From a virus, in IMG/VR virus record IMGVR_UViG_3300045988_120747, positions 1 to 27,355 of that record: DNA of 27,355 nt; one strand, given 5' to 3'. Below the pieces are notes generated by a model. It saw only the letters and a list, made by a program, of their open reading frames with translations. It was not told where the DNA came from and made no database searches. The translations under genes were made by a program, and so were the position numbers. Positions 1 to 27,355 of this stretch are shown here, piece by piece; positions within the stretch are counted from its first letter, which is position 1, and every line of letters begins with the position of its first letter.

Positions 1-99
1 CTGAGCGCCGAGCAGTTCACGGCGCTGATGTCTGAGGCAATGGCAGCCTTTGAGGCCGGGCGCAAGACCACGGTCGAGGTCGAGCCTTCAAAAAAAAAC
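1..99. repeat. Terminal direct repeat copy 1, an exact duplicate of 27257..27355; overlap of a circularly closed contig
   Basis: Read directly: bases 1-99 (ctgagcgccgagcagttc...gagccttcaaaaaaaaac) recur base-for-base at 27257-27355. The repeat lies inside a CDS, not at a physical genome end. Confidence 0.95.
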
Positions 100-126
100 G
101 AGGTCAGCCGACCCGAAACAGAGTAG
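1..126 (+). CDS. 3' end of the tail assembly chaperone (gpG-like) gene that starts at 27014 and continues across the circular junction; stop TAG 124..126
   Basis: Frame 1 is open from base 1 (LSAEQFTALMSEAMAAFEAGRKTTVEVEPSKKNEVSRPETE*). Bases 1-99 duplicate the end of the 27014 ORF in the same frame. Confidence 0.8.
   Translation: MSAEQFTALMSEAMAAFEAGRKTTVEVEPSKKNEVSRPETE
90..99 (+). other. Slippery run A9-C (tcA AAA AAA AAC): candidate programmed -1 ribosomal frameshift site of the chaperone G/GT pair (second copy at 27346..27355)
   Basis: Nine consecutive A then C in the zero frame near the end of the chaperone ORF. It contains both A_AAA_AAA and A_AAA_AAC heptamers. The -1 frame is open downstream. 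Confidence 0.65.
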
Positions 127-260
127 AAATCAATCTGGCTTGGTATCTCTTCTATGGCCGGATGCTGAATATGAGCAGACAGGAGATCATTAACACACGC
201 TACGGCAAACATGACAGTAACTGCCCCGACATCGATGCGCGCCCTGCTGGGCGGTACTGA
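96..260 (+). CDS. -1 frame extension (gpT-like part of the chaperone GT fusion), apparently cut short
   Basis: After a -1 slip, frame 3 reads K-RGQPTRNRVEINLAWYLFYGRMLNMSRQEIINTRYGKHDSNCPDIDARPAGRY*, with stop TGA at 258..260. It has no start codon or RBS of its own and lies directly after the major tail and chaperone genes. Confidence 0.55.
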   Translation, partial: KRGQPTRNRVEINLAWYLFYGRMLNMSRQEIINTRYGKHDSNCPDIDARPAGRY

Positions 261-1668
261 GGGCAGCGTACTCGACACGTACCGCGGCGAATTCTTCTTC
301 ACACACTTCCTCACGCAGCTGCTTACGTCACGCGGGCAGAACCGCGGCGTAGTCATACGCTACGGGAAAAACCTTATAGACCTCCGGCAGGAGGAGAACA
401 TTTCCAAGATGTACACCGGGGTATATCCGTATTACGTCGACAGCGAGACCGGAGAGATAACCCAGCTGCCCGACAAAATTGTAGCTGTCCCCGGCACATT
501 TGACTTCATCAACATCCTCATGCTGGACGTCTCGGGAGACTTCGACAGCCCGCCAACCGCGCAGCAGCTTATTCTCAGAGCGCAGAGCTATATCAACGAC
601 AACAATTTAGGAATACCGACCGTCTCCATCTCACTGAGCTATCAAGACATTGCCAGATTGATGGATTCAGCAGCGCCGCCCGAAATGATCAAGCTGTGCG
701 ATACCGTCACGGTCATTTATGAGAAGCTCGGCATTGAGACCACAGCCAAGGTCACGGAAACAGAGTACGATGTGCTGCGCGACAGGTACACTTCAATCAA
801 CATCGGTGACATCCGCGCGAACATTGCTGACACCATATACAGCAACGCGCAGGCGGTCGAGCAAACCGCTATTGACCTCCGCACCGAGACAGGCAAGGCA
901 ATAGCCAACGCGACGCAGCTCATCACGGGCACCAAGGGCGGCAACTTCGTCTTCCAGTTCAACTCCGACGGAAAGCCGATGGGCTTTTCCATCATGGACA
1001 CCGACGATGTGCTGACCGCAACCAATGTATGGCGCTTCAATCTCGGCGGCCTCGGGTACAGCTCCAAAGGCTATAACGGGCCGTTCGGGACAGCAATCAC
1101 GCAGGACGGTAAGATCGTTGCCGACTTTATACAGGCGGGCGCGCTATCCTCGGAGAATGTCACTGTGGGTGGGTTCACGCTCTCCGCGAGCTCACTCAGA
1201 AACGGCATGACGGCGCTCGACGACACAACGCATGACGGTGTGTATGTCGGGCTTGACGGCATAGCGCTCGGCAAAGGCGCATTCAAGGTTGACAAATACG
1301 GCAATCTCACTGCCACCAGCGGCAAGTTCACCGGCAGCGTCTACGCTTCCAGCATCCTGACCGAGGCCGAAGAAACCGGAGCGGGCTACATCGAGGGGAA
1401 TCAAGTTGGAGACTATACACTCTCCGGCGGCAGTGGCGGCAATCTTGCATATGACACAGTTGCCCCGGGAAACAACGACTCAACACTCAGCGGTTATGTC
1501 TCTCGCGGGACCACCGCATACGGGCAGTGCAACGGCGGGAATATCAGCAGCAATTATATCAGCGTTAATTCTCTGGCGGCTGGCGCACTCGGCATCGGCG
1601 GGCATGACTGCTATTTAGGGACACTATCGATTAACGGGATATCACACAATGTTGTTATGTGGGAATAA
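211..1668 (+). CDS. Tail-tip protein (Tal; Prophage_tail / phage minor structural protein family), N-terminally truncated
   Basis: Motifs ALLGGTEGSVLDTYRGEFFF, RGQNRGVVIRYGKNLIDLRQEENISKMYTGVYPYY, NVWRFNLGGLGYSSKGYNGPFGTAITQDGKIVADFIQAG are typical of Firmicute siphophage Tal proteins. From memory the first motif is internal in full-length members. There is no RBS before ATG 211. Confidence 0.8.
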   Translation: MTVTAPTSMRALLGGTEGSVLDTYRGEFFFTHFLTQLLTSRGQNRGVVIRYGKNLIDLRQEENISKMYTGVYPYYVDSETGEITQLPDKIVAVPGTFDFINILMLDVSGDFDSPPTAQQLILRAQSYINDNNLGIPTVSISLSYQDIARLMDSAAPPEMIKLCDTVTVIYEKLGIETTAKVTETEYDVLRDRYTSINIGDIRANIADTIYSNAQAVEQTAIDLRTETGKAIANATQLITGTKGGNFVFQFNSDGKPMGFSIMDTDDVLTATNVWRFNLGGLGYSSKGYNGPFGTAITQDGKIVADFIQAGALSSENVTVGGFTLSASSLRNGMTALDDTTHDGVYVGLDGIALGKGAFKVDKYGNLTATSGKFTGSVYASSILTEAEETGAGYIEGNQVGDYTLSGGSGGNLAYDTVAPGNNDSTLSGYVSRGTTAYGQCNGGNISSNYISVNSLAAGALGIGGHDCYLGTLSINGISHNVVMWE

Positions 1669-1686
1669 TCCCCGAAAGGAGAAATT

Positions 1687-1935
1687 ATGACAGTAGAAAC
1701 AGCCGGAAAATCTTTTGAACTTAAACTCTACGGGCAAATCGAGGAAAACAAGCTGTCCATAGAGTTTGTAGGCACATTCACCGATGCGATCCTCTACCTC
1801 ACGAGCGGGCATCTTGACATAAAGATGAATGACGACCGCACACGCACGTACGACGGATTCACATCAGCTGTATCGGTTCAGCGCGGACTGAAACCCAACT
1901 ATACGAACGTCGTTCTTGAGAGGGTGACGGCATGA
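1687..1935 (+). CDS. Hypothetical tail-associated protein (82 aa)
   Basis: ATG preceded by aaaggag RBS, lying between Tal and the fibre genes. No recognisable domain. Confidence 0.6.
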   Translation: MTVETAGKSFELKLYGQIEENKLSIEFVGTFTDAILYLTSGHLDIKMNDDRTRTYDGFTSAVSVQRGLKPNYTNVVLERVTA

Positions 1936-2111
1936 AACGGGAAGAAAGACTCAAGGCCGTCCGCCGGACACTCGAAGAAATCGACGTGCGCGGCAGAGGC
2001 AACATCGATAAAATGCTCGGCTGCATGATGATGCTCGATCAGATTATAGCCGAGGAGTCGCGGCCTGCACAGGAGGCGAAAGATGAAAGTAACATCTCAG
2101 ATAACGGTTGA
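1932..2111 (+). CDS. Small hypothetical protein (59 aa; below the ORF-track cutoff)
   Basis: ATG overlaps the upstream stop (gcATGA). Translation: MKREERLKAVRRTLEEIDVRGRGNIDKMLGCMMMLDQIIAEESRPAQEAKDESNISDNG*. It overlaps the next gene by 29 nt. Confidence 0.45.
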   Translation: MKREERLKAVRRTLEEIDVRGRGNIDKMLGCMMMLDQIIAEESRPAQEAKDESNISDNG

Positions 2112-3306
2112 CCTGCTTCACCCCAATGTGGCGACGCTGGTTTATGCGAAACAGGCCGACCAGCAGAGCCGCTTTATCTCTGCCGCATTGCTGGAGGGGT
2201 CGCAGCCATGGACACCCCCGACGGGTGCGCTCACCGCTGTAAGGTACCGGAAGCCAGACGGAACTATAGGCTGGTATGACACGACCGAGAACAAGGCCGC
2301 AGCCGTCACCATGAACGGCAACGTCGCTACGATCCAGCTTGCGGCACAGGCGCTGACCGTGAGCGGGGATGTGTATATCGAACTTGAGTTTTACACGCAG
2401 AGCGCCGAAAAGCTTTCAAGCTTCGCATGGGTGCTCGCTGTCGAAGCAAGTGCGGTAAGCGACGGCGAGATTGAAAGCTCGGATTATTTCAATGTTCTGG
2501 CCGAAACGCTCGCCGAGATAGTCAAAGCAATCCCTGACATCCAAAAAGCCAGCGAATATGCTCAGGCAGCCGCACAGTCGGCAACTCAGGCAGCAAACTC
2601 GGAAGCAGCGGCTGAGGCATCTGAACAGGCGGCGGCAGCTTCGGCAACGCAAGCGGCTGAATCCGAAGAGAATAGCGCAACTTCGGCACAAAACAGCAGT
2701 CAAAGCGCCGCAGCGTCGCAGACTTCCGCTGAGGCGGCGGCAGCAAGTCAGCAACTCGCCGCCTCAGCAGCGCAGACAGCAAGCGCTTCCGCTGCTTCGG
2801 CGGCCGAGTCCGAGGAGAATGCAGGAGAGTCGGCGCAGAACAGCGAAGCATGGGCAGTTGGAACCAGAGGCGGACAGGCCGTACCTGCTTCCGACGAAAC
2901 CCACAACAATAATTCAAAGTATTGGGCGCAGCAGGCCGCTGCAGCGGCTGGCGGCGGCGTGATAACGTTCAACGGACGCAGTGGCACCGTGGTGCCAGCA
3001 AACGGGGATTACACCCCCGAGATGGTCGGCGCAGCTCCCGCAATAAAAACGGCAACAGTCACGCTGCCGGTCACATCGTGGACGGGCAGCGCATCACCGT
3101 ACTCGCAGACGGTCACGATCAACGGCGCCACAGCGAATAGCCGTATTGACATTGATCCCGACACCACTGTTATGAACGGAGCAATGGATGGCGGCTACGG
3201 CCTTGTATTTGGCAACAACGCCGGAACTATCACCGCTTATGCAGTCGGAGATAAACCCACTGCGGCAATCACCGTGCAGGTGAGCATCACGGAGGTGACA
3301 GCATGA
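2083..3306 (+). CDS. BppU-N-like baseplate/tail fibre protein with an Ala/Ser/Gln/Glu-rich fibre shaft
   Basis: The N-terminus (ITVDLLHPNVATLVYAKQADQQSRFISAALLEGSQPW) resembles the BppU N-terminal domain. The central low-complexity repeats SATQAA(N/E)SE..., then SEAWAVG....NNSKYWAQQA, are typical of phage fibres. AGGAGG RBS. Confidence 0.7.
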   Translation: MKVTSQITVDLLHPNVATLVYAKQADQQSRFISAALLEGSQPWTPPTGALTAVRYRKPDGTIGWYDTTENKAAAVTMNGNVATIQLAAQALTVSGDVYIELEFYTQSAEKLSSFAWVLAVEASAVSDGEIESSDYFNVLAETLAEIVKAIPDIQKASEYAQAAAQSATQAANSEAAAEASEQAAAASATQAAESEENSATSAQNSSQSAAASQTSAEAAAASQQLAASAAQTASASAASAAESEENAGESAQNSEAWAVGTRGGQAVPASDETHNNNSKYWAQQAAAAAGGGVITFNGRSGTVVPANGDYTPEMVGAAPAIKTATVTLPVTSWTGSASPYSQTVTINGATANSRIDIDPDTTVMNGAMDGGYGLVFGNNAGTITAYAVGDKPTAAITVQVSITEVTA

Positions 3307-4310
3307 GTGAGATATTCGGCAACGGCATCATGGGCGGCGGGGGACTGACTAACTCAAAGCTTGCCCTCGCCAACGCGCAGGCCGCAGATGTACGCAGCGG
3401 TAAAAAGTTCTATGCCGGAGACAAACAGATCAAGACCGGCGCCCTTGCCGACGTTACGCAGGCCACGCCCGCAATAACGGTCGACGCTGCTGGGAAGATC
3501 ACCGCCTCGGCCACACAGGCCGCGGGCGTAGTCGCCGCCGGGACTAAGTCCGCAACGAAGCAGCTGCCAGTTCAAGCGGCGAAGACTGTAATTCCATCGG
3601 CATCCGCCCAGACCGCCGTCGGAGAGGGTGTATTCACGACCGGGATCGTCACCGTCGCCGCCGTCTATGCTGTGATCGACGTGACATACCCCTCGGGGAG
3701 CGTCTGCACCTGTTCAAATGGCAGCGTGACGCTGACAGCGAAGGATACCACCGGTAAAGCGATATTTGTTATCCCCTCCGCCGGAACGTGGACGGTCACG
3801 GCGGTCAGCGGCAGCAAGAGCACGAGCAAGGCCGTGAGCATCACAGCTGAGGGGCAGGTCGAGACCGTGGAGCTGACGTATGGGCTCTATATCTTTAAAA
3901 ATGGATCGGGGCTGACGTCCGGGTACTCAATCAAGAGCAACAGCATGATTTCTGCGCCGACAGTTTCAGGCGACACAATCAGTTGGTCTGGCAACTCCAG
4001 CAGCGGCGGCGTAGCATTCTATATCGACCCCGCCGTCGCGTTGAGTGGCTATACAAAACTGTGTTTCGATTTTGAGTGCTCATACAACTACGGCGGGAAC
4101 TACGGCATGGGATTTGGCGTCGGCACAGATGCCGCGGCCTCCACTACGATCAATAATACTAACTGGACTGCCAAAGTTACCAGCACAGCGCAGGGCACAA
4201 TTGCCCGGAATACGGTGCAGTGCGATATATCGGCGCTGACAGACTCGGAGTATATTAAAGTCGTAGGATCATATTCTGCCGGCGAAATCTATAACATCTG
4301 GCTTGAATGA
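3303..4310 (+). CDS. Putative tail fibre / receptor-binding protein
   Basis: ATGA overlap with the upstream fibre gene. The N-terminal motif ANAQAADVRSGKKFYAGDKQIKTG is common in gut Firmicute phage fibre proteins. The C-terminal half is Gly/Ser/Thr-rich and looks beta-rich. Confidence 0.55.
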   Translation: MSEIFGNGIMGGGGLTNSKLALANAQAADVRSGKKFYAGDKQIKTGALADVTQATPAITVDAAGKITASATQAAGVVAAGTKSATKQLPVQAAKTVIPSASAQTAVGEGVFTTGIVTVAAVYAVIDVTYPSGSVCTCSNGSVTLTAKDTTGKAIFVIPSAGTWTVTAVSGSKSTSKAVSITAEGQVETVELTYGLYIFKNGSGLTSGYSIKSNSMISAPTVSGDTISWSGNSSSGGVAFYIDPAVALSGYTKLCFDFECSYNYGGNYGMGFGVGTDAAASTTINNTNWTAKVTSTAQGTIARNTVQCDISALTDSEYIKVVGSYSAGEIYNIWLE

Positions 4311-4321
4311 GGGGGCGCAGC

Positions 4322-4621
4322 ATGACAATCTACATAGACAGCGATTATAAATGTTACGTCTCCGCATCTGACGGACGCAGAGCAATTGAGGTTAACGACT
4401 TCAATGGCAAATGCCCGGAATGGATAGAAAGTTACCGCTTCGTCCCCGAGGGCGAGACATGGACGCGCGAGGACGGAGAGGTGTTCACGAACATGGCAGC
4501 GCCGTGGAAGGACTTGGGCGAGGCTTACGCGGCGCAGACGGCGTACGTGGCGGCGCAGAATGCGCAGTACGAAGCGGCTTTATCGGAGATAGAGGTAGCG
4601 CTGGGGGTGAATGCTGAATGA
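4322..4621 (+). CDS. Hypothetical protein (start moved to the second ATG, which has an RBS)
   Basis: gaggggg RBS lies 6 nt before ATG 4322. Product: MTIYIDSDYKCYVSASDGRRAIEVNDFNGKCPEWIESYRFVPEGETW... This type of small protein recurs after fibre genes in Clostridia phages (recollection). Confidence 0.6.
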   Translation: MTIYIDSDYKCYVSASDGRRAIEVNDFNGKCPEWIESYRFVPEGETWTREDGEVFTNMAAPWKDLGEAYAAQTAYVAAQNAQYEAALSEIEVALGVNAE

Positions 4622-6764: not shown

Positions 6765-6805
6765 AAAAAAGAACCGAGCGGGTTATTCCGCTCGGCTCTT
6801 TTTTT
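6765..6805. terminator. Bidirectional rho-independent terminator shared by the lysis operon and the integrase
   Basis: A6 - ccgagcgg - gttatt - ccgctcgg - T7. The integrase stop codon (6783..6785) lies in the loop. Confidence 0.75.
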
Positions 6806-8393
6806 GCCTCGGCAGACTAAAGCAAAGTAGCCCACCATTGATAATAATTCTTGGTACCGGTGGAGCGACACCCGGAATTATTATCAATCCTATTTCGGGG
6901 TCGTCCCAATCTGTATTAAAGTCAAATGTTCCGTCCGGTTTCGCATCCAGCAGCGTCCAGACCCTTATTCTGTCCTTGCCGACCTCTACCCGGACAACTA
7001 CGCTCAGAAGAGCGGGAATATCGTTCGCGGCGACCTTGAGCAGCTCACGGAGCCTGTCCTCGGGGATCGTCGTGCCCTGCGCCTGGTTATGCAGCGTTGT
7101 CATTTCACGGTCGTTCTGCGCCTGCTCGGCCTCCAGCGCGTGAACCGTGTCAATCAGGGACTGACTGTGCATACCGGCAAGCACCGCGCTCATGGCGGCG
7201 TCGAGCTGCTTCTTTATCTCGGCCTGCCGGTCAAATAGGGCTTTCATGCGCATAGCCGTCTGTTCCTGAATCTTCCCGCGCTCCTCGCGCAGTATACAGA
7301 TAAGCCCGTCGACATTCTCAGGGTTCCCGAGCATATTTTTGATAGCCTCGGCAATCATGCGTTCAAGATCGTCAACCTTGATAGGCATATTGTCACAGGT
7401 TTTCTTTCGCTTCTTCTCAGAGCAGGCATAGTAATAATACCCACCCTGCGAGCACGTCACGGACATTGAGGCCTTGCACTCCCCGCAGAACACTTTCCCC
7501 TTGAGCGGGTACTCCCTGACTCTCACAGGCCGTCCCGCCTGCTTGCGTTTGTTTGCCATAAGCTTCTCCTGTACTATATCCCAAGTTTCCCGGTCGACAA
7601 TGGCCGGTATCATGTCCTCCATGCGCATCACCGTAGACGCGACAGCATGACTGTTCCGGCTGCCGTCCGGGCGCTTCTGCGTCCGTCCATAGGTCAGCAC
7701 GCCGATATACTTCTCGTTCTTCAGTAGGTCGTGCAGACTGTTAGACCCGAACGTGCCGCCCGACTTCGTGCGCCGTCCCTCGGCGTTGAGCCGCTGGATG
7801 ATCTCCCGATAAGACCGCCCGGCGGCATAGTCCCCGAAGATGATGCGCACCGTCTCGGCCTCAGGCTCGCAGACCTCGATCCTGCCGTCGATGACGACAT
7901 ACCCGAGCGGGGGCACGCCGCCGGTATACTTCCCCTGCTCAGCCATCCAGCGCATTTTCTCACAGACCTTTTGCCGGGTCTGCAAAACCCACATCTGATT
8001 CATAAGTGCCATGCCACCCTCTGACATGAACGTCGCAGGGTCGCGCAGATCGCCGCCGATCATCGGCTGAGTCACTGATACCACCCGGACGCCAAGACGC
8101 TCCAGACGCTCACGCAGAGTGAACCACGCGGTCATTTTGCGAAACATACGGCTTTGATCATAGATAACGACCGTGTCCGCGCCGCCCTCCGAGAGCAGCC
8201 GCATCATACGGTCAAACTGCGGCCGGGTCTCTTTCATGCCGCTGACAGCTTCATCCGCGAACACATCCAGCACAGGGAGCCGCTGCCGGTCGCACCACTC
8301 GCGGCACCTGCTGACCTGAACCTCGATACTGTCGGCATCCTGCCGGTCGGTCGAGAACCGGGCAAGGATATATGCCCCGTGAGTTAACTTCAT
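6783..8393 (-). CDS. int: Large serine recombinase (integrase)
   Basis: N-terminal resolvase motif YILARFSTDRQ, a recombinase domain (GGVPPLGY, YREIIQRLN), a zinc ribbon (CGEC...YYYYACSEKKRKKTCDN) and a C-terminal coiled coil. Confidence 0.9.
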   Translation of the reverse strand: MKLTHGAYILARFSTDRQDADSIEVQVSRCREWCDRQRLPVLDVFADEAVSGMKETRPQFDRMMRLLSEGGADTVVIYDQSRMFRKMTAWFTLRERLERLGVRVVSVTQPMIGGDLRDPATFMSEGGMALMNQMWVLQTRQKVCEKMRWMAEQGKYTGGVPPLGYVVIDGRIEVCEPEAETVRIIFGDYAAGRSYREIIQRLNAEGRRTKSGGTFGSNSLHDLLKNEKYIGVLTYGRTQKRPDGSRNSHAVASTVMRMEDMIPAIVDRETWDIVQEKLMANKRKQAGRPVRVREYPLKGKVFCGECKASMSVTCSQGGYYYYACSEKKRKKTCDNMPIKVDDLERMIAEAIKNMLGNPENVDGLICILREERGKIQEQTAMRMKALFDRQAEIKKQLDAAMSAVLAGMHSQSLIDTVHALEAEQAQNDREMTTLHNQAQGTTIPEDRLRELLKVAANDIPALLSVVVRVEVGKDRIRVWTLLDAKPDGTFDFNTDWDDPEIGLIIIPGVAPPVPRIIINGGLLCFSLPRQKKSRAE

Positions 8394-8444: not shown

Positions 8445-8849
8445 TCAAAGGCCGAGCTGCTGCTTGAGCGCGTCCTGAAGCACCTGCGAGAAGTTCATAT
8501 TATGCTCCAGCGCGGCAGCGTTGAGCCATGCGGGGAGCGTGACAGTGCGGTTGACGGAGCGGTTGACACGCGCCTGACGGATGGAGGGCATATACACATC
8601 CACCAGCACCGCGCGCTCATTCTCGCTGAGTTGAACGGCATTAAGACGCGATGGAGCGGGAATGTCCTCCCCGTCCTCCTCAAGACCGAAGAGGGTAATG
8701 CCCAGCAGTTCACGCGCGGAGAGCAGGGCGTCATCATCATCAACGCCGCTGGTGGCCACATCCAGATCAGGAAACATGACGGAAATCTCTTCGCCGGGCT
8801 CATATGAGAACACGGCAGGATAAATATAACGATCCGGTTTTTTCTTCAT
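8445..8849 (-). CDS. hicB: HicB-family antitoxin with a C-terminal ribbon-helix-helix-like DNA-binding tail
   Basis: YIYPAVFSYEPGEEISVMFPDLDVATSGVDDDDALLSARELLGITL is a typical HicB N-domain. The C-terminus reads RTVTLPAWLNAAALEHNMNFSQVLQDALK. It lies directly downstream of hicA. Confidence 0.85.
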   Translation of the reverse strand: MKKKPDRYIYPAVFSYEPGEEISVMFPDLDVATSGVDDDDALLSARELLGITLFGLEEDGEDIPAPSRLNAVQLSENERAVLVDVYMPSIRQARVNRSVNRTVTLPAWLNAAALEHNMNFSQVLQDALKQQLGL

Positions 8850-8884
8850 TCAAAAAACTCCTTTCGATAAGGGAGAGCGGGGGC

Positions 8885-9082
8885 TCACCTGAATTTGAGC
8901 CCCGACTGTCTCTCTATGCTGTCCAATGTCTTGCGTGGGATGTCCTTGCAAGGGCTTTTGACTGTCACACGGCCGGGTTTCGTCGGATGCTTGAACTGAT
9001 GATGACTTCCGACTATGTTCACTTCATACCAACCGGCAACGATCAGAGCCGTGATGACTTCTCTTGCTGAGTAGCTCTTCAA
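8885..9082 (-). CDS. hicA: HicA-family mRNA interferase toxin (TTG start)
   Basis: LKSYSAREVITALIVAGWYEVNIVGSHHQFKHPTKPGRVTVKSPCKDIPRKTLDSIERQSGLKF is the HicA signature. AGGAGGG lies 6 nt before the TTG. The ORF-track ATG at 9133 would fall inside the promoter. Confidence 0.85.
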   Translation of the reverse strand: MKSYSAREVITALIVAGWYEVNIVGSHHQFKHPTKPGRVTVKSPCKDIPRKTLDSIERQSGLKFR

Positions 9083-11413: not shown

Positions 11414-11442
11414 TTGACATTTCGACTAAAACGAATTATACT
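11414..11442 (+). promoter_or_regulatory. Early (lytic) promoter TTGACA-17-TATACT
   Basis: ttgacatttcgactaaaacgaattatact, about 55 nt upstream of the first early ORF. Confidence 0.65.
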
Positions 11443-14963: not shown

Positions 14964-15842
14964 ATGGACAAAGAACAAACTGCAATGGAGCGGCTGCGGC
15001 TGGCGTCGGATATGTCGCTGCGCCTGTATCACCGTCCGCTGCTGCTGACCGACTCCGGCGGCAAGGACAGCGCCGTGATCTGCAAGCTCGCGGAGAATGC
15101 CGGAATCCCGTTTGAAATCGTCCACTCTCACACGACCGCCGACGCACCTGAGACCGTCTATCATGTCCGCATGCGTGCCAAAGAATACGAACTCAAAGGC
15201 GTTAGCTATACGATCCATTACCCCACGTATAAGGGCGAGCCTACAAGTATGTGGAAGCTCATACCCATTAAGCTCATGCCGCCGACACGGTTAGCCCGTT
15301 ACTGCTGCGCTGTGCTCAAGGAGACAACAGGCCGCGACAGGTTCATAGCGACCGGTGTGCGCTGGGCGGAGAGCACAGCACGGAAGAACAATCGCAGCAG
15401 TCTTGAAATAATCCACGCAGACCGGGAGAAGACCCTGCTGCTGAACAACGACAACGATGAAGATAGGCGGCTCTTCGAGACATGCGCGCTCAAGGGCAAG
15501 CGTGTCTGCAATCCTATCATCGACTGGCAGGAATCCGACGTGTGGGACTACCTCACAGATCAGCACGTCGAATGTAATCCACTGTACTGTGAGGGCTTGC
15601 GTCGAGTGGGCTGCGTTGGCTGCCCGATGGCGGGCAAAGCACGGAAAAAAGAGTTTGCCCGCTGGCCGAAGTTCCCGCAGATGTACATCAATGCGTTTGA
15701 CCGCATGCTCGCAGAGCGACAGCGCCGCGGCACGCTGGCCGGCTCATGGGGGATGGGCACTACCGGCGTTGACGTGTTCCACTGGTGGATGGAGGACGGC
15801 GTCCTGCCGGGGCAGTTCGAGATTGAGGAGGATGAACCGTGA
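14964..15842 (+). CDS. PAPS-reductase-family (adenine nucleotide alpha-hydrolase) protein, DndC/IbrA-like
   Basis: PP-loop motif LLLTDSGGKDSAV. A C-terminal Cys cluster: CNPIIDW...CNPLYCEGLRRVGCVGCPMA. Confidence 0.8.
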   Translation: MDKEQTAMERLRLASDMSLRLYHRPLLLTDSGGKDSAVICKLAENAGIPFEIVHSHTTADAPETVYHVRMRAKEYELKGVSYTIHYPTYKGEPTSMWKLIPIKLMPPTRLARYCCAVLKETTGRDRFIATGVRWAESTARKNNRSSLEIIHADREKTLLLNNDNDEDRRLFETCALKGKRVCNPIIDWQESDVWDYLTDQHVECNPLYCEGLRRVGCVGCPMAGKARKKEFARWPKFPQMYINAFDRMLAERQRRGTLAGSWGMGTTGVDVFHWWMEDGVLPGQFEIEEDEP

Positions 15843-16390
15843 CTGATATCAAGCCATTCCCGGATAAACTATTCCGCACAATCTACATAGATCCGCCGTG
15901 GCCAGAACGGGGCGGCGGCAAAATCAAGCGCGGCGCAGACCGGCACTACAACCTGATGTCTGTTGCTGAAATTAAGGCGCTGCCGATTGCCCGGCTCGCA
16001 GACCCTGACGGGTGTCACCTGTACTGCTGGGCAACAAACAATTATCTACCAGCCGCCATTGAGTGCGTGAAAACGTGGGGCTTTGAGTATGTAACAGTGG
16101 TAACGTGGATGAAAGACCGTCAAGGGCTTGGACAGTATTACCGCGGCTCCACAGAGCATTGCATATTTGCCACGACGAAGAAGCGCCTGCCATACAAAGT
16201 TTCTCCTGAAGGCAAACGCTGTCAGGGGAAAACGGGATTCTACGCACCAAAAACAATTCACAGTCGAAAACCAGATGAGATGCGCCGGATGATAGAGCTT
16301 GTGAGTTACGCACCGCGCATAGAGATTTTTGCGAGAGAACAATTCACCGGCTGGGATGCCTGGGGAAACGAAGTGGAGGAACTGACATGA
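15839..16390 (+). CDS. MT-A70-family N6-adenine DNA methyltransferase (GTG start)
   Basis: Catalytic motif IYIDPPWPE, plus LYCWATNNYL, TWMKD and HSRKPDEM. gaggagg RBS 7 nt upstream. GTGA overlap with the upstream stop. Confidence 0.9.
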   Translation: MTDIKPFPDKLFRTIYIDPPWPERGGGKIKRGADRHYNLMSVAEIKALPIARLADPDGCHLYCWATNNYLPAAIECVKTWGFEYVTVVTWMKDRQGLGQYYRGSTEHCIFATTKKRLPYKVSPEGKRCQGKTGFYAPKTIHSRKPDEMRRMIELVSYAPRIEIFAREQFTGWDAWGNEVEELT

Positions 16391-19354: not shown

Positions 19355-20182
19355 ATGAAGGACGGATATTGGGTAGTCAGAACATACGAAGCCGGGCAGG
19401 TCGGCGAGAAGACGAAGTACTTCGTTCTCGGTGATCGCACCCGGCGCAACAGACGCAAGGAAGAATCCAGCATCAAGAAGCAGGAGCAGAATGAATACTC
19501 CACGAAGAAGCGCCTTGCCCGTCTCATCAATGCGAACTTTACACACGGAGATATCCTCCTCGGTCTTGACTACTCCGATGCATCATACAAGAAGCTCGAA
19601 CGCTCCGCTCGGAAAGCTGCCCCGGATTATGACAGCCTGCCCGAAGAGGATCAGCTGCGCTGCATCCGTGAAGCTGCCACCCAGGAGATGGCGAACTATC
19701 TCCGCAGGGTGAAGCGTGCTCTCGAAAAAGAATGCCGCGCCGATGAGCTAAAGTACGTAGCGATCACATCCGACATGGACGGCGACACAAAGGAGACCGT
19801 GCGCGTTCATCATCACCTGATAGTCCCGGCCTCATGCGAGCACATCATCCGCGTGAAGTGGGGACACGGCGGCACGTACTGCAAGCCCCTGAGCAAGCAG
19901 GAAGATTACCTGCCGATCGCCGAGTATCTGATAGCCCAGGTGCGCGGGACGCTCAACGCAAAGAAGTTCGTATCGTCACGCAATCTTATCCGCCCGCAGC
20001 CGAAAGACCGCGTAGCCGTGAGCGACGCCGAGATCAGAGTGCCCCGCAACTGCAAGCTCATTCAGCGTGCAGAGTATAAGCGCGGCGCACCTCAGTACAT
20101 CCGTTACATCCTGCCGGAGAAGAAAGCAGCAGACATAAGCAGCAGCGGCGGAGAGCCCGCCGCAGAAAGGAGCGAGACATGA
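19355..20182 (+). CDS. Possible HUH-superfamily (rolling-circle Rep-like) protein; otherwise hypothetical
   Basis: Three ordered motifs resemble Rep motifs I-III: DILLGLDY, TVRVHHHLIV (HUH-like) and YLPIAEYLIAQV (Tyr), followed by SSRNLIRP. aaaaggag RBS. The assignment is from memory of similar Firmicute proteins, not from a search. Confidence 0.4.
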   Translation: MKDGYWVVRTYEAGQVGEKTKYFVLGDRTRRNRRKEESSIKKQEQNEYSTKKRLARLINANFTHGDILLGLDYSDASYKKLERSARKAAPDYDSLPEEDQLRCIREAATQEMANYLRRVKRALEKECRADELKYVAITSDMDGDTKETVRVHHHLIVPASCEHIIRVKWGHGGTYCKPLSKQEDYLPIAEYLIAQVRGTLNAKKFVSSRNLIRPQPKDRVAVSDAEIRVPRNCKLIQRAEYKRGAPQYIRYILPEKKAADISSSGGEPAAERSET

Positions 20183-21559: not shown

Positions 21560-21919
21560 ATGACACGAAAAAAATGGCGGGAAGCCATATTGAACGATAT
21601 GCGGCAGCTCGACATAGATTCAACCGGGTTTGACATCACGATAAACCTTGCCGCCGATACGCTCTATGAGCTCGATCGGGCACGCACCGCATACAAGAAA
21701 AGCGGCTCTATCGCCGTGATAGAGCACACGAACAAAAACGGGAGCACCAACAAAGCAAAGAACCCGGAATTGACAATCGTCCTTGACCTCAAATCCAAAG
21801 CCCGTGAATTTCTGGCCGAGCTTGGCCTGACCCCCGCCGCACAAAAGCGGTTGACAAACGATGCCCCCAAAAAGGAGAAGCTCAGTCCGCTGGCCAAAGC
21901 GCTGAGCGAGATAAAATGA
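21560..21919 (+). CDS. terS: Terminase small subunit, P27 family
   Basis: About 120 aa. The pattern W......L.....G.D....L..Y......A......G.....TNKNGSTNKAKNPELTIVLDL..KAREFLAELGLTPAAQ is typical of P27-type TerS. It lies directly upstream of terL. Confidence 0.8.
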   Translation: MTRKKWREAILNDMRQLDIDSTGFDITINLAADTLYELDRARTAYKKSGSIAVIEHTNKNGSTNKAKNPELTIVLDLKSKAREFLAELGLTPAAQKRLTNDAPKKEKLSPLAKALSEIK

Positions 21920-23268
21920 GAGCAATCACCGGGCGGAATTGGGATGTGGTCCTTGAGTATGCCGAGAGCATACGCAGCGGCCGGAAATGCGCCTGCCCCG
22001 AGCTCAAGCAAGCGGTTGAGCGTTTCTTCCGAGACCTCGACGACCCAAGATATTACCTTGACCCTAAAGGCCCTGAGTTCTGCATTCAGATCATCGAAAA
22101 GACGATAGTCCACAAGCAGGGCGAGAAGCTTGACGGCACACCGCTTAGAGGAACACCGTTCCTACTGGAACCGTTCCACAAATTCATCATCTACAACGTC
22201 GTCGGGTTCAAACTGACAGGGACGGATGTGGCAAGGTATCACGAAGCCCTGATCTTTATCCCGCGAAAAAACATCAAGACCACCTTTGCGGCAAGCCTGG
22301 CATTCGCTCTATCACTATATTACCGCAAGAGCGGGAGCAAGTGTTACATCGTCGGTGCGGCGCTGAAACAGAGCTTGGAAAGCTTTGAATTTCTGGAATA
22401 CAACATCAAGCACATGGGCGAGGACGCCGCGAGCGGCGGGGCGGTAAAAATTATCAACAACAACAATGAGCATTCCTTAAGGGCGGAGCTGCCCGGCGGG
22501 GACGGCTCATTTTTCATTCAATCCCTCGCGGCAAACCCTGACGCGCAAGACTCACTGAACTGCAACCTTGCAATCTGCGATGAGCTGCACGCCTATAAAA
22601 AGCCGAAGCAGTACAACCTCTTCAAGGAAGCCATGAAGGCCTATTCGAACAAGCTTCTGATCGGCATCAGCACGGCAGGGGATAACGAGCAGATGTTCCT
22701 TGGACAAAGGCTGAAATACTGCCGCAAGGTACTTGAGGGGATAATCAGCGATGAGCAGCTGTTCATCTTCATGTGCTGTGCTCCAAAAGACCCGGAGACG
22801 GGCGAGGTGGATTTCACAAACCCGACAGTCCATGAGATGGCAAATCCGGCCTATGGCATCAGCATACGCCCTGAGGAGATTCTCAACGACAGCATTCAGG
22901 CGCAGAACGACTCACAGCAGCGCAAAGATTTCTTTGCAAAAAGCCTGAACGTCTACACAAATTCCATCAAGGCGTATTTCAACATTGATGAGTTCCGCCG
23001 GTCCGATAAAAAGTATGACTGGACGCTCGACCAGCTACGGCGGCTGCCGATCAAATGGTACGGCGGCGCTGACCTCTCAAAGCTGCATGACCTCACTGCC
23101 GCCGCCCTTGTCGGCAACTACAAGGGCGTGGATATCATCATCACGCACGCCTTTTTCCCGGTGGCTGTCGCCCACAGAAAGGCGGACGAAGATAACATTC
23201 CTCTGTTCGGATGGCAGGATGACGGATGGCAATTAAAGCAATTATGCTGCGCAAGCGCATCGAACTGA
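21916..23268 (+). CDS. terL: Terminase large subunit (Terminase_1 type), C-terminally truncated
   Basis: Walker-like region IFIPRKNIKTTFAA, LAICDELHAY, ISTAGDN, and the start of the nuclease domain (WYGGADLSKLHDLTAAALV). The ORF ends after ...PLFGWQDDGW plus 12 unrelated residues. At 450 aa it is short for a family I recall as well over 500 aa. Confidence 0.85.
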   Translation: MRAITGRNWDVVLEYAESIRSGRKCACPELKQAVERFFRDLDDPRYYLDPKGPEFCIQIIEKTIVHKQGEKLDGTPLRGTPFLLEPFHKFIIYNVVGFKLTGTDVARYHEALIFIPRKNIKTTFAASLAFALSLYYRKSGSKCYIVGAALKQSLESFEFLEYNIKHMGEDAASGGAVKIINNNNEHSLRAELPGGDGSFFIQSLAANPDAQDSLNCNLAICDELHAYKKPKQYNLFKEAMKAYSNKLLIGISTAGDNEQMFLGQRLKYCRKVLEGIISDEQLFIFMCCAPKDPETGEVDFTNPTVHEMANPAYGISIRPEEILNDSIQAQNDSQQRKDFFAKSLNVYTNSIKAYFNIDEFRRSDKKYDWTLDQLRRLPIKWYGGADLSKLHDLTAAALVGNYKGVDIIITHAFFPVAVAHRKADEDNIPLFGWQDDGWQLKQLCCASASN

Positions 23269-24908
23269 AAAAGGCCGAGCTTGCCCAGCACAGGGAAAGA
23301 GCAAAAGAGTTTGAAACTCGCAAATCCGACATCACCGAGGCAATCGGTGAGGCCACCACTGAGGAGGAGATCGACGCTCTCAATGAGGGCATGGATCAGC
23401 TTGAAACCGAGTGGAAAGAGCACGAGGAGACCGAAAATCGCCTCAGCGGCGAAATCGCGGCGCTTGAGCAGCAGCTCACCGAAGAGGAGCAGCGCGGCAC
23501 GCCGCCCATCAACAACCCCGAGAGCGGGGCAAATACCGAAAGGAGCAATCATATGACCACCACCATCAACATCCGTTCTCTGCCCTTTGGCCAGAGAGTA
23601 ATGGACGCGCTGCCTCGCCAGGAGCGCGACGCAATCATCGGGCAGGAGGATAGTAAAAACTTCCTCGCACAGCTGCGCAGCCTCAAGGGCGAGAAGCGCG
23701 GCGTCAGCGGCGGTGAGCTGACCATTCCTGTCGTATTCCTCGACCTCATCGCCGAGAATATGTACAGATACAGCAAGCTGCTCAACCGCGTCCGTGTGCG
23801 CTCTGTTACGGGCACCACCCGTCAGACCATCGCGGGCACGGTCCCGGAAGCTGTCTGGACGGAGATGTGCGCAGCTATCAATGAGCTGACTCTGGTATTC
23901 AACCAGACCACGCTTGATGGCTACAAGGTAGCGGGCTTCGTACCTGTCTGCAACAGCCTGCTGGAGGACAACGACGTCAACCTCGCAAGCTGGATCGTTG
24001 AGATGCTTTCCGAAAGCATCGGCCTCGCAATCGACAAGGCGATCCTCTACGGCAAGGGCGCAGCCAACAGTATGCCTCTCGGCATTGTAACCCGCCTTGC
24101 ACAGCAGAGCAAGCCCGCCGGGTACCCGGCTGCCGCCCCTGCATGGGTCGACCTCCACACCAGCAACATCCTCAAGATCGATGCCAGCAAGACCGGCGCT
24201 GAGTTCTGGGCAGCCCTCCAGATCGCGGCAGGCGCCACGTTCACCCGTTACAGCCGCGGTAATCAGTTCTGGGCGATGAACAGCAAGACCTACGCGCTTC
24301 TCAAGTCCAAGGCAATCACTTTCACCGCATCCGGTGATGTTGTAGCCAATGTTTACGGCATCCTGCCCATCGTGACCGGCGATATCGACATTCTGGAGTT
24401 CATCCCGGACGGCGATATCATCGGCGGTTACGGCGACCTGTACCTCTACGCCGACCGCGCGAGAATGACGATTGAGGAGAGCCGCGAGGTGCAGTTCCTT
24501 CAGGACAACACCGTATTCAAGGGCAAGGCCCGTGCGGACGGTACGCCGGTCGTTCCGGGCGCGTTCGTTGCGATTAATATCAACGGCAGCGAAGTTACCA
24601 CCGCAATGACGTTTGCAGCTGACACGGCGAACGACGCCGACCTTGATTCCCTCAGCGTCGGCACCGGCTCACTCAGCCCGGCCTTTGATGCGGCCACTCA
24701 GAGCTACACGCTCTCTACCACGGCGGCATCCCTCGCAGTCAACGCAGCGGCGGCACAGATCGACGCAAAGGTAGCGATTAGCTACGGCGGAAAGAATGTA
24801 GCCAACGGCGGCAACATTACCCCGACTGCCGGGGCGAGCACCCTCACCGTGACCGTGACCAATGGCAACGCGACCAAGGTGTACACCGTCGCGATCACCA
24901 AGACCTGA
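23226..24908 (+). CDS. HK97-fold major capsid protein with an N-terminal coiled-coil (delta/scaffold-like) region and a C-terminal cadherin-like/Ig-like domain
   Basis: The core motifs LTIPVVFLD, DGYKVAGFVPVCNSLLEDNDVNLASWIVEMLSESIGLAIDKAILYGKG, LGIV and FLQDNTVFKGKARADG are typical of the Phage_capsid family. There is no RBS before either ATG (23226 or 23244). Confidence 0.85.
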   Translation: MAIKAIMLRKRIELKKAELAQHRERAKEFETRKSDITEAIGEATTEEEIDALNEGMDQLETEWKEHEETENRLSGEIAALEQQLTEEEQRGTPPINNPESGANTERSNHMTTTINIRSLPFGQRVMDALPRQERDAIIGQEDSKNFLAQLRSLKGEKRGVSGGELTIPVVFLDLIAENMYRYSKLLNRVRVRSVTGTTRQTIAGTVPEAVWTEMCAAINELTLVFNQTTLDGYKVAGFVPVCNSLLEDNDVNLASWIVEMLSESIGLAIDKAILYGKGAANSMPLGIVTRLAQQSKPAGYPAAAPAWVDLHTSNILKIDASKTGAEFWAALQIAAGATFTRYSRGNQFWAMNSKTYALLKSKAITFTASGDVVANVYGILPIVTGDIDILEFIPDGDIIGGYGDLYLYADRARMTIEESREVQFLQDNTVFKGKARADGTPVVPGAFVAININGSEVTTAMTFAADTANDADLDSLSVGTGSLSPAFDAATQSYTLSTTAASLAVNAAAAQIDAKVAISYGGKNVANGGNITPTAGASTLTVTVTNGNATKVYTVAITKT

Positions 24909-26377: not shown

Positions 26378-27001
26378 ATGTCAGCAGCAGGAAAAGTCTG
26401 TACCGGCTTCTCACGCCCGTGGGTAGCCAAGTACAGCGCAAACGGCGGCACCGTCACATACTCAGGCGCTATGCAGCTTGCCCGCGGCGTAGAGGTCAAG
26501 ATCGACCCGGAAACCGCGGCAGACAATACGTTTTATGCCGACAACATGGCGGCTGAGAGCCAGGAGGGTGTTCTCACCGGCGGCACTACCACCCTGACGG
26601 TCGACGGCCTGTTCCGCAAGGCAGAGGATCTGATAATGGGTCTGCCTGAGACCAAGAGCAAGATCACAATCGACGGCAGCACGCAGGTCAGCGTTACGGA
26701 CTACGACGACGATATGAAGATTCCGTATATCGGGCTTGGCTTCGTCGTGCGGTATATGTCCGACGGTGTCACATCGTACAGCCCGGTAGTACTCACTAAG
26801 CTCCGCACTACCGCATCCTCGGAAGAATACGCCACGCAGGAAGAGGAAATCGACTGGCAGACAAAGGAGCTTGAAATGTCCATACACCGCGACGACAGCA
26901 CTAAGCACCGCTGGAAGCGCGTGGCGGACGATCAGGAGAGCGAAGACGCCGCCGAGGCCTGCATCAAGGCCATGCTCAACTATACAGAGCCGGGCGGCTG
27001 A
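26378..27001 (+). CDS. Major tail (tube) protein, phi13/TP901-1-like
   Basis: 207 aa, lying immediately upstream of the frameshifting chaperone gene. The patterns FYADNMAAES, LTVDGL and ATQEEEIDWQTKELEMSIHRDD resemble this family. Confidence 0.7.
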   Translation: MSAAGKVCTGFSRPWVAKYSANGGTVTYSGAMQLARGVEVKIDPETAADNTFYADNMAAESQEGVLTGGTTTLTVDGLFRKAEDLIMGLPETKSKITIDGSTQVSVTDYDDDMKIPYIGLGFVVRYMSDGVTSYSPVVLTKLRTTASSEEYATQEEEIDWQTKELEMSIHRDDSTKHRWKRVADDQESEDAAEACIKAMLNYTEPGG

Positions 27002-27013
27002 TAGGAGGCTGTT

Positions 27014-27355
27014 ATGATCATATTCGGCAAAGAACGCGGTTTTAGTTTCACCGTCGGTGCGTCCGTGGAGATTGCGGAGATGTGCCCTGACGGCGACCTG
27101 ACCAAGATTGAGAAGTTTCTCAGCGGCAAGTACGGCAGAGTGACGCGCAACGGCGCAAAGCTCATCATTGAGCTCAACAAGGCCTATGAGATGCAGCGCA
27201 GCTTTGAAAATGAGACCTACAAGCCCGAGCCCCTGACCATGGCACAGGTCATGGCACTGAGCGCCGAGCAGTTCACGGCGCTGATGTCTGAGGCAATGGC
27301 AGCCTTTGAGGCCGGGCGCAAGACCACGGTCGAGGTCGAGCCTTCAAAAAAAAAC
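27014..27355 (+). CDS. Tail assembly chaperone (gpG-like), 5' part; runs off the window end and continues at base 100 (stop at 124..126 after circularisation)
   Basis: taggagg RBS. The product MIIFGKERGFSFTVGASVEIAEMCPDGDLTKIEKFLSG...EVEPSKKN is open to the last base of the window. It is absent from the ORF track because it has no stop codon in the window. Confidence 0.8.
   Translation, partial: MIIFGKERGFSFTVGASVEIAEMCPDGDLTKIEKFLSGKYGRVTRNGAKLIIELNKAYEMQRSFENETYKPEPLTMAQVMALSAEQFTALMSEAMAAFEAGRKTTVEVEPSKKN
27257..27355. repeat. Terminal direct repeat copy 2 (identical to 1..99)
   Basis: Exact 99/99 identity, read directly. Confidence 0.95.

Follow-up and report, generated by a model that had tools for sequence, protein, structure and literature searches.

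A circular contig of a human-gut temperate siphovirus, very probably made defective by two microhomology-mediated deletions in its tail and head modules

The DNA analysed here, a stretch of 27,355 nucleotides that we call the window, falls into a familiar class, that of defective prophages or phage deletion mutants: a common 33-kb phage is present here in crippled form, and the tail is not of a new type. Assembled as a complete circle, it is very probably the defective descendant of a temperate HK97-type siphovirus of human-gut Clostridia, this host group being itself the probable one. In all likelihood two recent microhomology-mediated deletions turned a temperate siphovirus of about 33.3 kb into the present element of 27,256 bp. 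One of them, deletion A, lies in the tail module and the other, deletion B, in the head module, and each was recognised by comparison with closely related intact phages.

The circular contig and its genes

The window is the ENA contig ERZ27260652:k99_73361, which was assembled with MEGAHIT at k = 99. Its positions 1..99 are identical to 27257..27355, and this 99-bp terminal overlap is the assembly overlap at k = 99, which shows that the contig represents a circle of 27,256 bp. The same sequence was found in a second assembly as scaffold_262 (ERZ28666989 ZEEV15-1_SAMEA3646699), which is 27,311 bp long and 100% identical to the window. This scaffold is linearised near window position 11438 and passes uninterrupted through the ends of the window, so the circle is confirmed. 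In the window and in the intact circular relative IMGVR_UViG_3300045988_104297 (L017 + L165), linearisation is such that the terminal overlap ends at the A9 slippery run of G/GT (window 90-99); independent assemblies are probably opened at this one site by a bubble that the length of the homopolymer causes in their graphs.

The main features are collected in Table 1, and the gene map further includes HTH regulators, HNH, TerS, TerL, four connector genes, an endolysin and a holin. A Shine-Dalgarno core match of at least 4 nt precedes 49 of the 53 called genes, and everywhere outside the two deletions the gene lengths equal those of the relatives. Scans of the window with Rfam and for tRNAs and repeats gave nothing relevant to the junctions.

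Table 1 Features of the window that bear on the two deletions
Feature	Position	Strand	Remarks
Slippery run AAAAAAAAAC	90..99	+	A_AAA_AAC in the G frame (93-99), A9 run 90-98; -1 frameshift site making G-T; same sequence in an intact relative
Truncated T extension, -1 frame	99..260	+	36 native residues and 17 foreign ones (Tal DNA out of frame); TGA stop 258-260
Tail-module deletion junction	202..206	+	5-bp ACGGC microhomology; from nucleotide alignment with relatives
Tal without residues 1-137	211..1668	+	485 aa; start codon is internal Met138; no Shine-Dalgarno
BppU-like baseplate or fibre protein	2083..3306	+	Downstream of Tal; retained
Large serine recombinase (integrase)	6783..8393	-	Intact; 99% identical in relatives
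Replication initiation protein	19355..20182	+	phrog_3584, E 5.7e-46; retained
Truncated large terminase	21916..23268	+	Residues 1-438 of 583 and 12 foreign ones; C-terminal 145 aa of the nuclease domain lost
Head-module deletion junction	23226..23229	+	ATGG microhomology; 2225 bp missing; 12/12 relatives
Major capsid protein	23226..24908	+	560 aa, intact; 99-100% identical to 10 IMG/VR relatives
Major tail protein	26378..27001	+	207 aa, intact; phrog_88, E 1.5e-19
Tail assembly chaperone G	27014..27355, continuing 100..125	+	122 aa, intact; equals the 122-aa gene in L006, L007, L009 and L012

Some further features of the map were observed in passing. Beside the integrase, the minus-strand interval 8445-9082 contains two adjacent genes, one with a HicA toxin domain (PF07927) and an unannotated one of 134 aa, which is possibly the antitoxin. 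The early region carries a PAPS-reductase-like gene followed by an MT-A70 methyltransferase (14985-16390). The capsid protein consists of an N-terminal region of about 160 aa, an HK97-type Phage_capsid domain from residue 163 and a C-terminal Ig/cadherin-like domain, the match of this last domain (residues 475-559) being weak.

The tail module compared with intact relatives

At the intact loci L006, L007 and L012 the genes for G, T, tape measure, Dit and Tal stand in canonical order, and the same loci have TerL, portal, S78 protease and capsid. What lies between G and Tal in L006, L007, L009 and L012 is the T extension, a protein of 694 or 720 aa and a protein of 235 aa; the large one is the tape measure (phrog_58, 1.3e-59) and the small one is Dit (phrog_33, 1.3e-32; Pfam Sipho_tail, PF05709). 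Alignment with these relatives showed how the tail module of the window was joined. The left parent reads ...ACACGCT ACGGC GAAATGTG... in codons 35-36 of the T extension, the right parent reads ...GGTCACC ACGGC AAACATG... in codons 135-136 of Tal, and the window across 202-206 reads ...ACACGCT ACGGC AAACATG..., with one copy of the shared ACGGC. All 13 close relatives that cover the tail region have 3301, 3315 or 3379 bp between the two ACGGC copies, and the size varies because the tape measure has two forms. This segment encodes the end of T, the tape measure, Dit and Tal 1-137 in the relatives, and the window is accordingly without the final 33 codons of T, the complete genes for tape measure and Dit, and the first 137 residues of Tal. 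When the relatives' tape measure, Dit and Tal 1-137 were used as tblastn queries, the window gave no match (best E 0.5, and 2.0 for Dit), and an intact relative gave E values from 1e-93 to 0. Two components of a functional siphovirus tail module, the tape measure and Dit (Sipho_tail), are thus missing from the window, and remnants of the genes deleted at either junction were found nowhere else in it.

The original prediction, made from the window by itself, had been an internal deletion of the end of T, the tape measure, Dit and the N-terminus of Tal, and this core claim stands, since 13 of 13 intact relatives carry the segment. It had also argued that no ORF exceeds 560 aa and hence that there is no tape measure candidate; the longest ORF is indeed the 560-aa capsid protein. 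Its breakpoint at 205-230 was right in lying just upstream of ATG 211, but the actual junction is at 202-206, and the segment that the window lacks has 3.3-3.4 kb, where an insert of 4-7 kb had been expected in relatives. It had further noticed that the -1 extension turns into unrelated residues and stops at 260, which we saw as 17 out-of-frame Tal codons with the stop at 258-260.

G and the slippery run are intact, with the G frame ending at TAG 123-125, and the T domain that would complete a G/GT chaperone with programmed -1 frameshift is incomplete. From the A9 run the -1 frame reads RGQPTRNRVEINLAWYLFYGRMLNMSRQEIINTRYG and then KHDSNCPDIDARPAGRY. In the intact relatives the T extension has 69 aa and continues ...RYGEMCDMISCFAIYNGATPAKKKKSWSIEEALQLR; of these the window keeps 36, so that the native residues end in ...EIINTRYG and the unrelated ones follow. 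The minus strand under 127-330 contains no ORF of at least 50 aa.

On the other side of the junction, the 485-aa product corresponds to residues 138-622 of the 622-aa intact Tal (P0001), with 481 of 485 residues identical in a gap-free alignment, which means that the N-terminal domain is not complete. The predicted loss of about 100-150 residues was therefore close to the actual 137, and the reported lack of a ribosome-binding site before ATG 211 was also correct, for none is present in the upstream sequence (TAACACACGCTACGGCAAAC), in a window where nearly all other genes have a Shine-Dalgarno core. The product matches Prophage_tail PF06605 with 53.7 bits (cut-off 31.3) over residues 20-209, and it matches phrog_1067 at 1.8e-74 and phrog_5555 at 1.6e-60. 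It had been proposed that the missing columns of the Pfam model would reveal the truncation, but this comparison is not diagnostic, since full-length Tal (622 aa) likewise aligns with Prophage_tail over columns 63-247 only. The evidence for truncation comes instead from the near-identical full-length relatives and from the PHROG profiles, which the Tal of the window enters at positions of about 141-158. In a protein search, the homologues that are 90-100% identical to the 485-aa product were almost all 620-622 aa long, and one cluster had 403 member sequences; the exceptions in length were P0004 (522 aa) and P0015 (327 aa). P0004 belongs to what looked like a second damaged Tal in L009 (5456-7338, 81 + 522 aa), where the split proved to be a run of N in the scaffold and no mutation. 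The best GenBank matches to Tal come from Ca. Heliusvirales phages at about 40% identity, and their Tal begins 136-138 residues before the first residue in the window.

The N-terminal domain of Tal is the part expected to form the ring under Dit. In the lost stretch there are 33 positions that are invariant among 14 homologues with identities down to 35%, and by this alignment the deleted N-terminus is the most conserved-looking part of the Tal family. A PDB search with the single Tal sequence gave no match, and one with the 14-sequence Tal profile gave only 9m7n Gp16 over Tal positions 299-480, which does not address the N-terminus. For the intact Tal, AlphaFold2 with an alignment of 17 sequences gave an unusable model (mean pLDDT 37).

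The relatives themselves vary in this region. Their tape measure occurs in two forms in otherwise near-identical phages, 720 aa (L006 3004-5166) and 694 aa (L007 7216-9300), and in a tblastn comparison the 720-aa form was about 50% identical to its counterpart in a relative with the 694-aa form, suggesting an exchange of modules within the tail operon. Farther downstream, the BppU-like protein and the next protein have 407 and 335 aa in the window (2083-4310) versus 561 and 320 aa in L007 (12284-14928), and the DNA identity between window and relatives falls after about window position 2650-3030, as would be expected for swapping of receptor-binding modules. In L008 (positions 1-195; ZEEV15-1_SAMEA3664643 scaffold_13958), an ORF that we take by eye to be SpoVA-like runs in frame into the final 17 codons of Dit, and an intact Tal of 620 aa follows directly; the fusion may have arisen in assembly, as a chimera at a shared FTGG-coding stretch, or be a further rearrangement of this phage.

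The head module and the age of the deletions

A second deletion of the same type had been missed by the original prediction, which was right about the tail module. At 23226-23229 the sequence ATGG is common to codon 438 of TerL and to the start codon of the capsid gene, and exactly 2225 bp are missing by comparison with all 12 relatives that cover the head region. On its right side deletion B thus ends precisely at the start codon of the capsid gene, a tidiness that the ATGG repeat explains. The lost segment contained the last 145 residues of TerL, the genes for the portal (403 aa) and for the S78 prohead protease (198 aa), and the ribosome-binding site of the capsid gene. In the Pfam search the TerL of the window stops at column 155 of 286 in the nuclease model, and the capsid gene follows directly, with neither portal nor protease between them. 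TerL is full-length in the relatives (573 aa as called on their contigs, 583 aa from the start codon used in the window), and they have a portal (PF04860, 1.4e-55) and an S78 prohead protease (8.1e-45); of these last two genes no remnant was found in the window. Of the full-length TerL, portal and prohead protease expected in an autonomous HK97-type head and packaging module, none is present here. With the protease gene deleted, the precursor of the capsid protein could not be processed.

In one close relative, L020 (IMGVR_UViG_3300045988_116404, 39,910 bp), TerL homology begins only at about TerL residue 118 and is preceded by about 4.3 kb of unrelated DNA (positions 1-4322) with GC-rich repetitive sequence and a 258-aa ORF. 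Possible causes are an insertion into TerL, a rearrangement and a misassembly.

The intact relatives are about 33.3 kb long, so the window has 82% of the intact genome length. The complete circular relative IMGVR_UViG_3300045988_104297 (33,479 bp) is colinear with the window through the structural genes and otherwise differs only by the usual mosaic replacements in the early region. Protein identity between the window and intact relatives reaches 100%. The window is shown by this comparison to be the derived state, because both junctions leave truncated, out-of-frame remnants of conserved genes. Both deletions appear to be recent, because no other decay is visible: the other genes have kept their lengths, and the capsid protein is 100% identical to that of several relatives. 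Outside the metagenomic relatives, no near relative was found among GenBank phages, the best DNA match having 66% identity over 18% of the query; among the GTDB species-representative genomes the best capsid identity was 69%, and no host or integration site was identified there.

Origin of the element and comparison with known systems

Each deletion lies between short direct repeats of which one copy is retained. Illegitimate recombination of this sort is well established in phages and bacteria, and two independent events between very short direct repeats would have removed the internal segments. In deletion A, ACGGC in T codons 35-36 would have been joined to ACGGC in Tal codons 135-136, with 3.3-3.4 kb lost; in deletion B, ATGG at TerL codon 438 would have been joined to the ATGG that starts the capsid gene, with 2225 bp lost. 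Among random breakpoint pairs in an intact relative, microhomology of at least 4 bp occurs in 1.8% and of at least 5 bp in 0.6%, so the joint chance of both microhomologies is about 1e-4. The mechanism may have been slipped mispairing in replication or microhomology-mediated joining of broken ends. The deletion event as such is biologically ordinary.

As far as can be judged from its genes, the element should be unable to package DNA or to build heads and tails on its own. With the TerL nuclease truncated and the portal gone, neither DNA cleavage nor packaging would be expected; without the protease, heads would not mature; and tail initiation and length determination would fail with tape measure and Dit absent, T truncated and Tal deprived of both its N-terminal domain and its ribosome-binding site. 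It should still be able to integrate, excise, replicate and lyse, because the serine integrase, the regulators, the replication initiator, the holin and the endolysin are intact. Its expected state is that of a persisting prophage which remains capable of excision and replication, and this would account for the circular assembly.

Other explanations were weighed against this one. The contig comes from a short-read metagenome assembly, and another scaffold of the same cohort's assembly set (L008) looks chimeric, so the joins might be artefacts of assembly or library preparation and the real genome intact. We consider this extremely improbable. Three different assemblers, working at k = 31, 55 and 99, gave contigs that cross both junctions, namely the MEGAHIT contig k99_73361, scaffold_262 of ERZ28666989 (where k = 55 is implied by the scaffold length) and the Logan contigs ERR1110315_7731 and ERR1110315_27295 (k = 31). 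At each junction the two parents have no more than 4-5 bp in common, much less than the shortest k-mer used, and the window has no repeat of at least 20 nt, so a k-mer misjoin is excluded; a chimera by assembly would call for a repeat as long as the assembler's k-mer or for a join seen by one assembler only, and we found neither. The deleted 5.5 kb are, moreover, absent from a contig that closes on itself. It is also unlikely, though less so than an artefact, that the junctions are real and present in a minority of the molecules, with an intact sibling dominating or co-existing and the assemblers giving out the shorter path. Deletion variants arise constantly in replicating phage populations, and the short Logan contigs of ERR1110315 (2.1 and 3.8 kb) hint at graph complexity or low coverage. 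However, each of these contigs crosses its junction without a break, the assemblers at all three k values traverse both junctions, and two of the three assemblies close the circle; an equally or more abundant intact path would branch and break contigs at the junctions, and no contig ends at either of them.

The three assemblies probably derive from one stool sample of one cohort, as their naming and their 100% identity over 27 kb suggest, and so their agreement is technical rather than biological replication. The exact truncated Tal and TerL proteins were found only in these three assemblies, which share one sequence, and IMG/VR contains neither junction k-mer, so that nothing indicates spread or persistence. 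An 18-mer across the junction had 11 matches in JGI metagenomes, all of them unrelated chance matches. These observations bear on the possibility that the element is a mini-phage which depends on a helper, much like a defective-interfering genome or a satellite, and is packaged in the virions of an intact sibling. In favour of this are the retained genes for HNH, TerS, replication initiation, integration and lysis, the circular assembly and the frequent occurrence of intact siblings in human gut samples; a genome of the reduced length might, moreover, still fit a cos-type head. Yet the element is known from one sample only, no helper is evident in the same assemblies, it keeps genes for capsid, connector, tail tube and fibre, for which a streamlined satellite would have no use, it has no hijacking genes, and the out-of-frame debris at both junctions is typical of accidents; we therefore judge a helper-dependent life very unlikely. 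In this very unlikely reading the circle would have arisen naturally as a parasite of the phage from which it descends and would have kept replication, TerS, HNH, the packaging site and lysis; it would be packaged by its intact siblings and spread in the gut at their expense. Two accidental deletions in a temperate phage remain the reading that we prefer.

For viral catalogues the element is a reminder that circular "complete" viral contigs can be non-viable. This circle is without six essential functions (the nuclease end of TerL, portal, protease, tape measure, Dit and the N-terminus of Tal), and neither catalogues nor annotation based on gene order should read such contigs as unusual head or tail architectures. 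The canonical tail order of siphoviruses such as SPP1, TP901-1 and lambda is major tail protein, G/GT chaperone, tape measure, Dit and Tal. The intact relatives have this same order (major tail protein of 207 aa, G of 122 aa with its -1 T, tape measure of 694/720 aa, Dit of 235 aa, Tal of 622 aa). The window keeps the major tail protein, G, the slippery site and the C-terminal 485 aa of Tal, but differs in its truncated T, in the absence of tape measure and Dit, and in a Tal without its conserved first 137 residues, and such a module would not be expected to work as a tail-initiation complex.

Spontaneous deletions between short direct repeats are known from classic studies of T7, T4 rII and lambda, including the lambda-dv plasmids. 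Like those mutants, the window has its breakpoints in direct repeats of 4-5 bp a few kb apart, with one copy kept. The laboratory deletion mutants that persist have usually lost non-essential DNA, whereas the window has lost essential genes, and its persistence must therefore depend on lysogeny, episomal replication or a helper. Phage satellites (PICI, cf-PICI, P4-like) likewise bear an integrase, are smaller than a phage, have a partial set of virion genes and need a helper for packaging. The window was rejected as a member of this class, because it does not belong to a conserved lineage such as defines the PICI and cf-PICI satellites, has no interference or hijacking genes and retains most of its phage genes; to our knowledge, the missing set of portal, protease, tape measure and Dit matches no described satellite layout. 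The literature that we found on comparable cases consisted only of generic prophage papers.

The closest likeness is to cryptic or defective prophages that arose by internal deletions, such as the cryptic prophages of E. coli K-12 and the skin element of B. subtilis. Like them, the window is a temperate phage genome minus essential morphogenesis genes, with the integrase, the regulators and some of the structural genes kept. Unlike them, it assembles as a free circle and not inside host DNA, and it looks like a very early stage, with two clean deletions and no other pseudogenes. It offers a base-pair-resolved snapshot of the first step of prophage decay, taken in an uncultured gut phage lineage that has many intact siblings and before any other damage has appeared.
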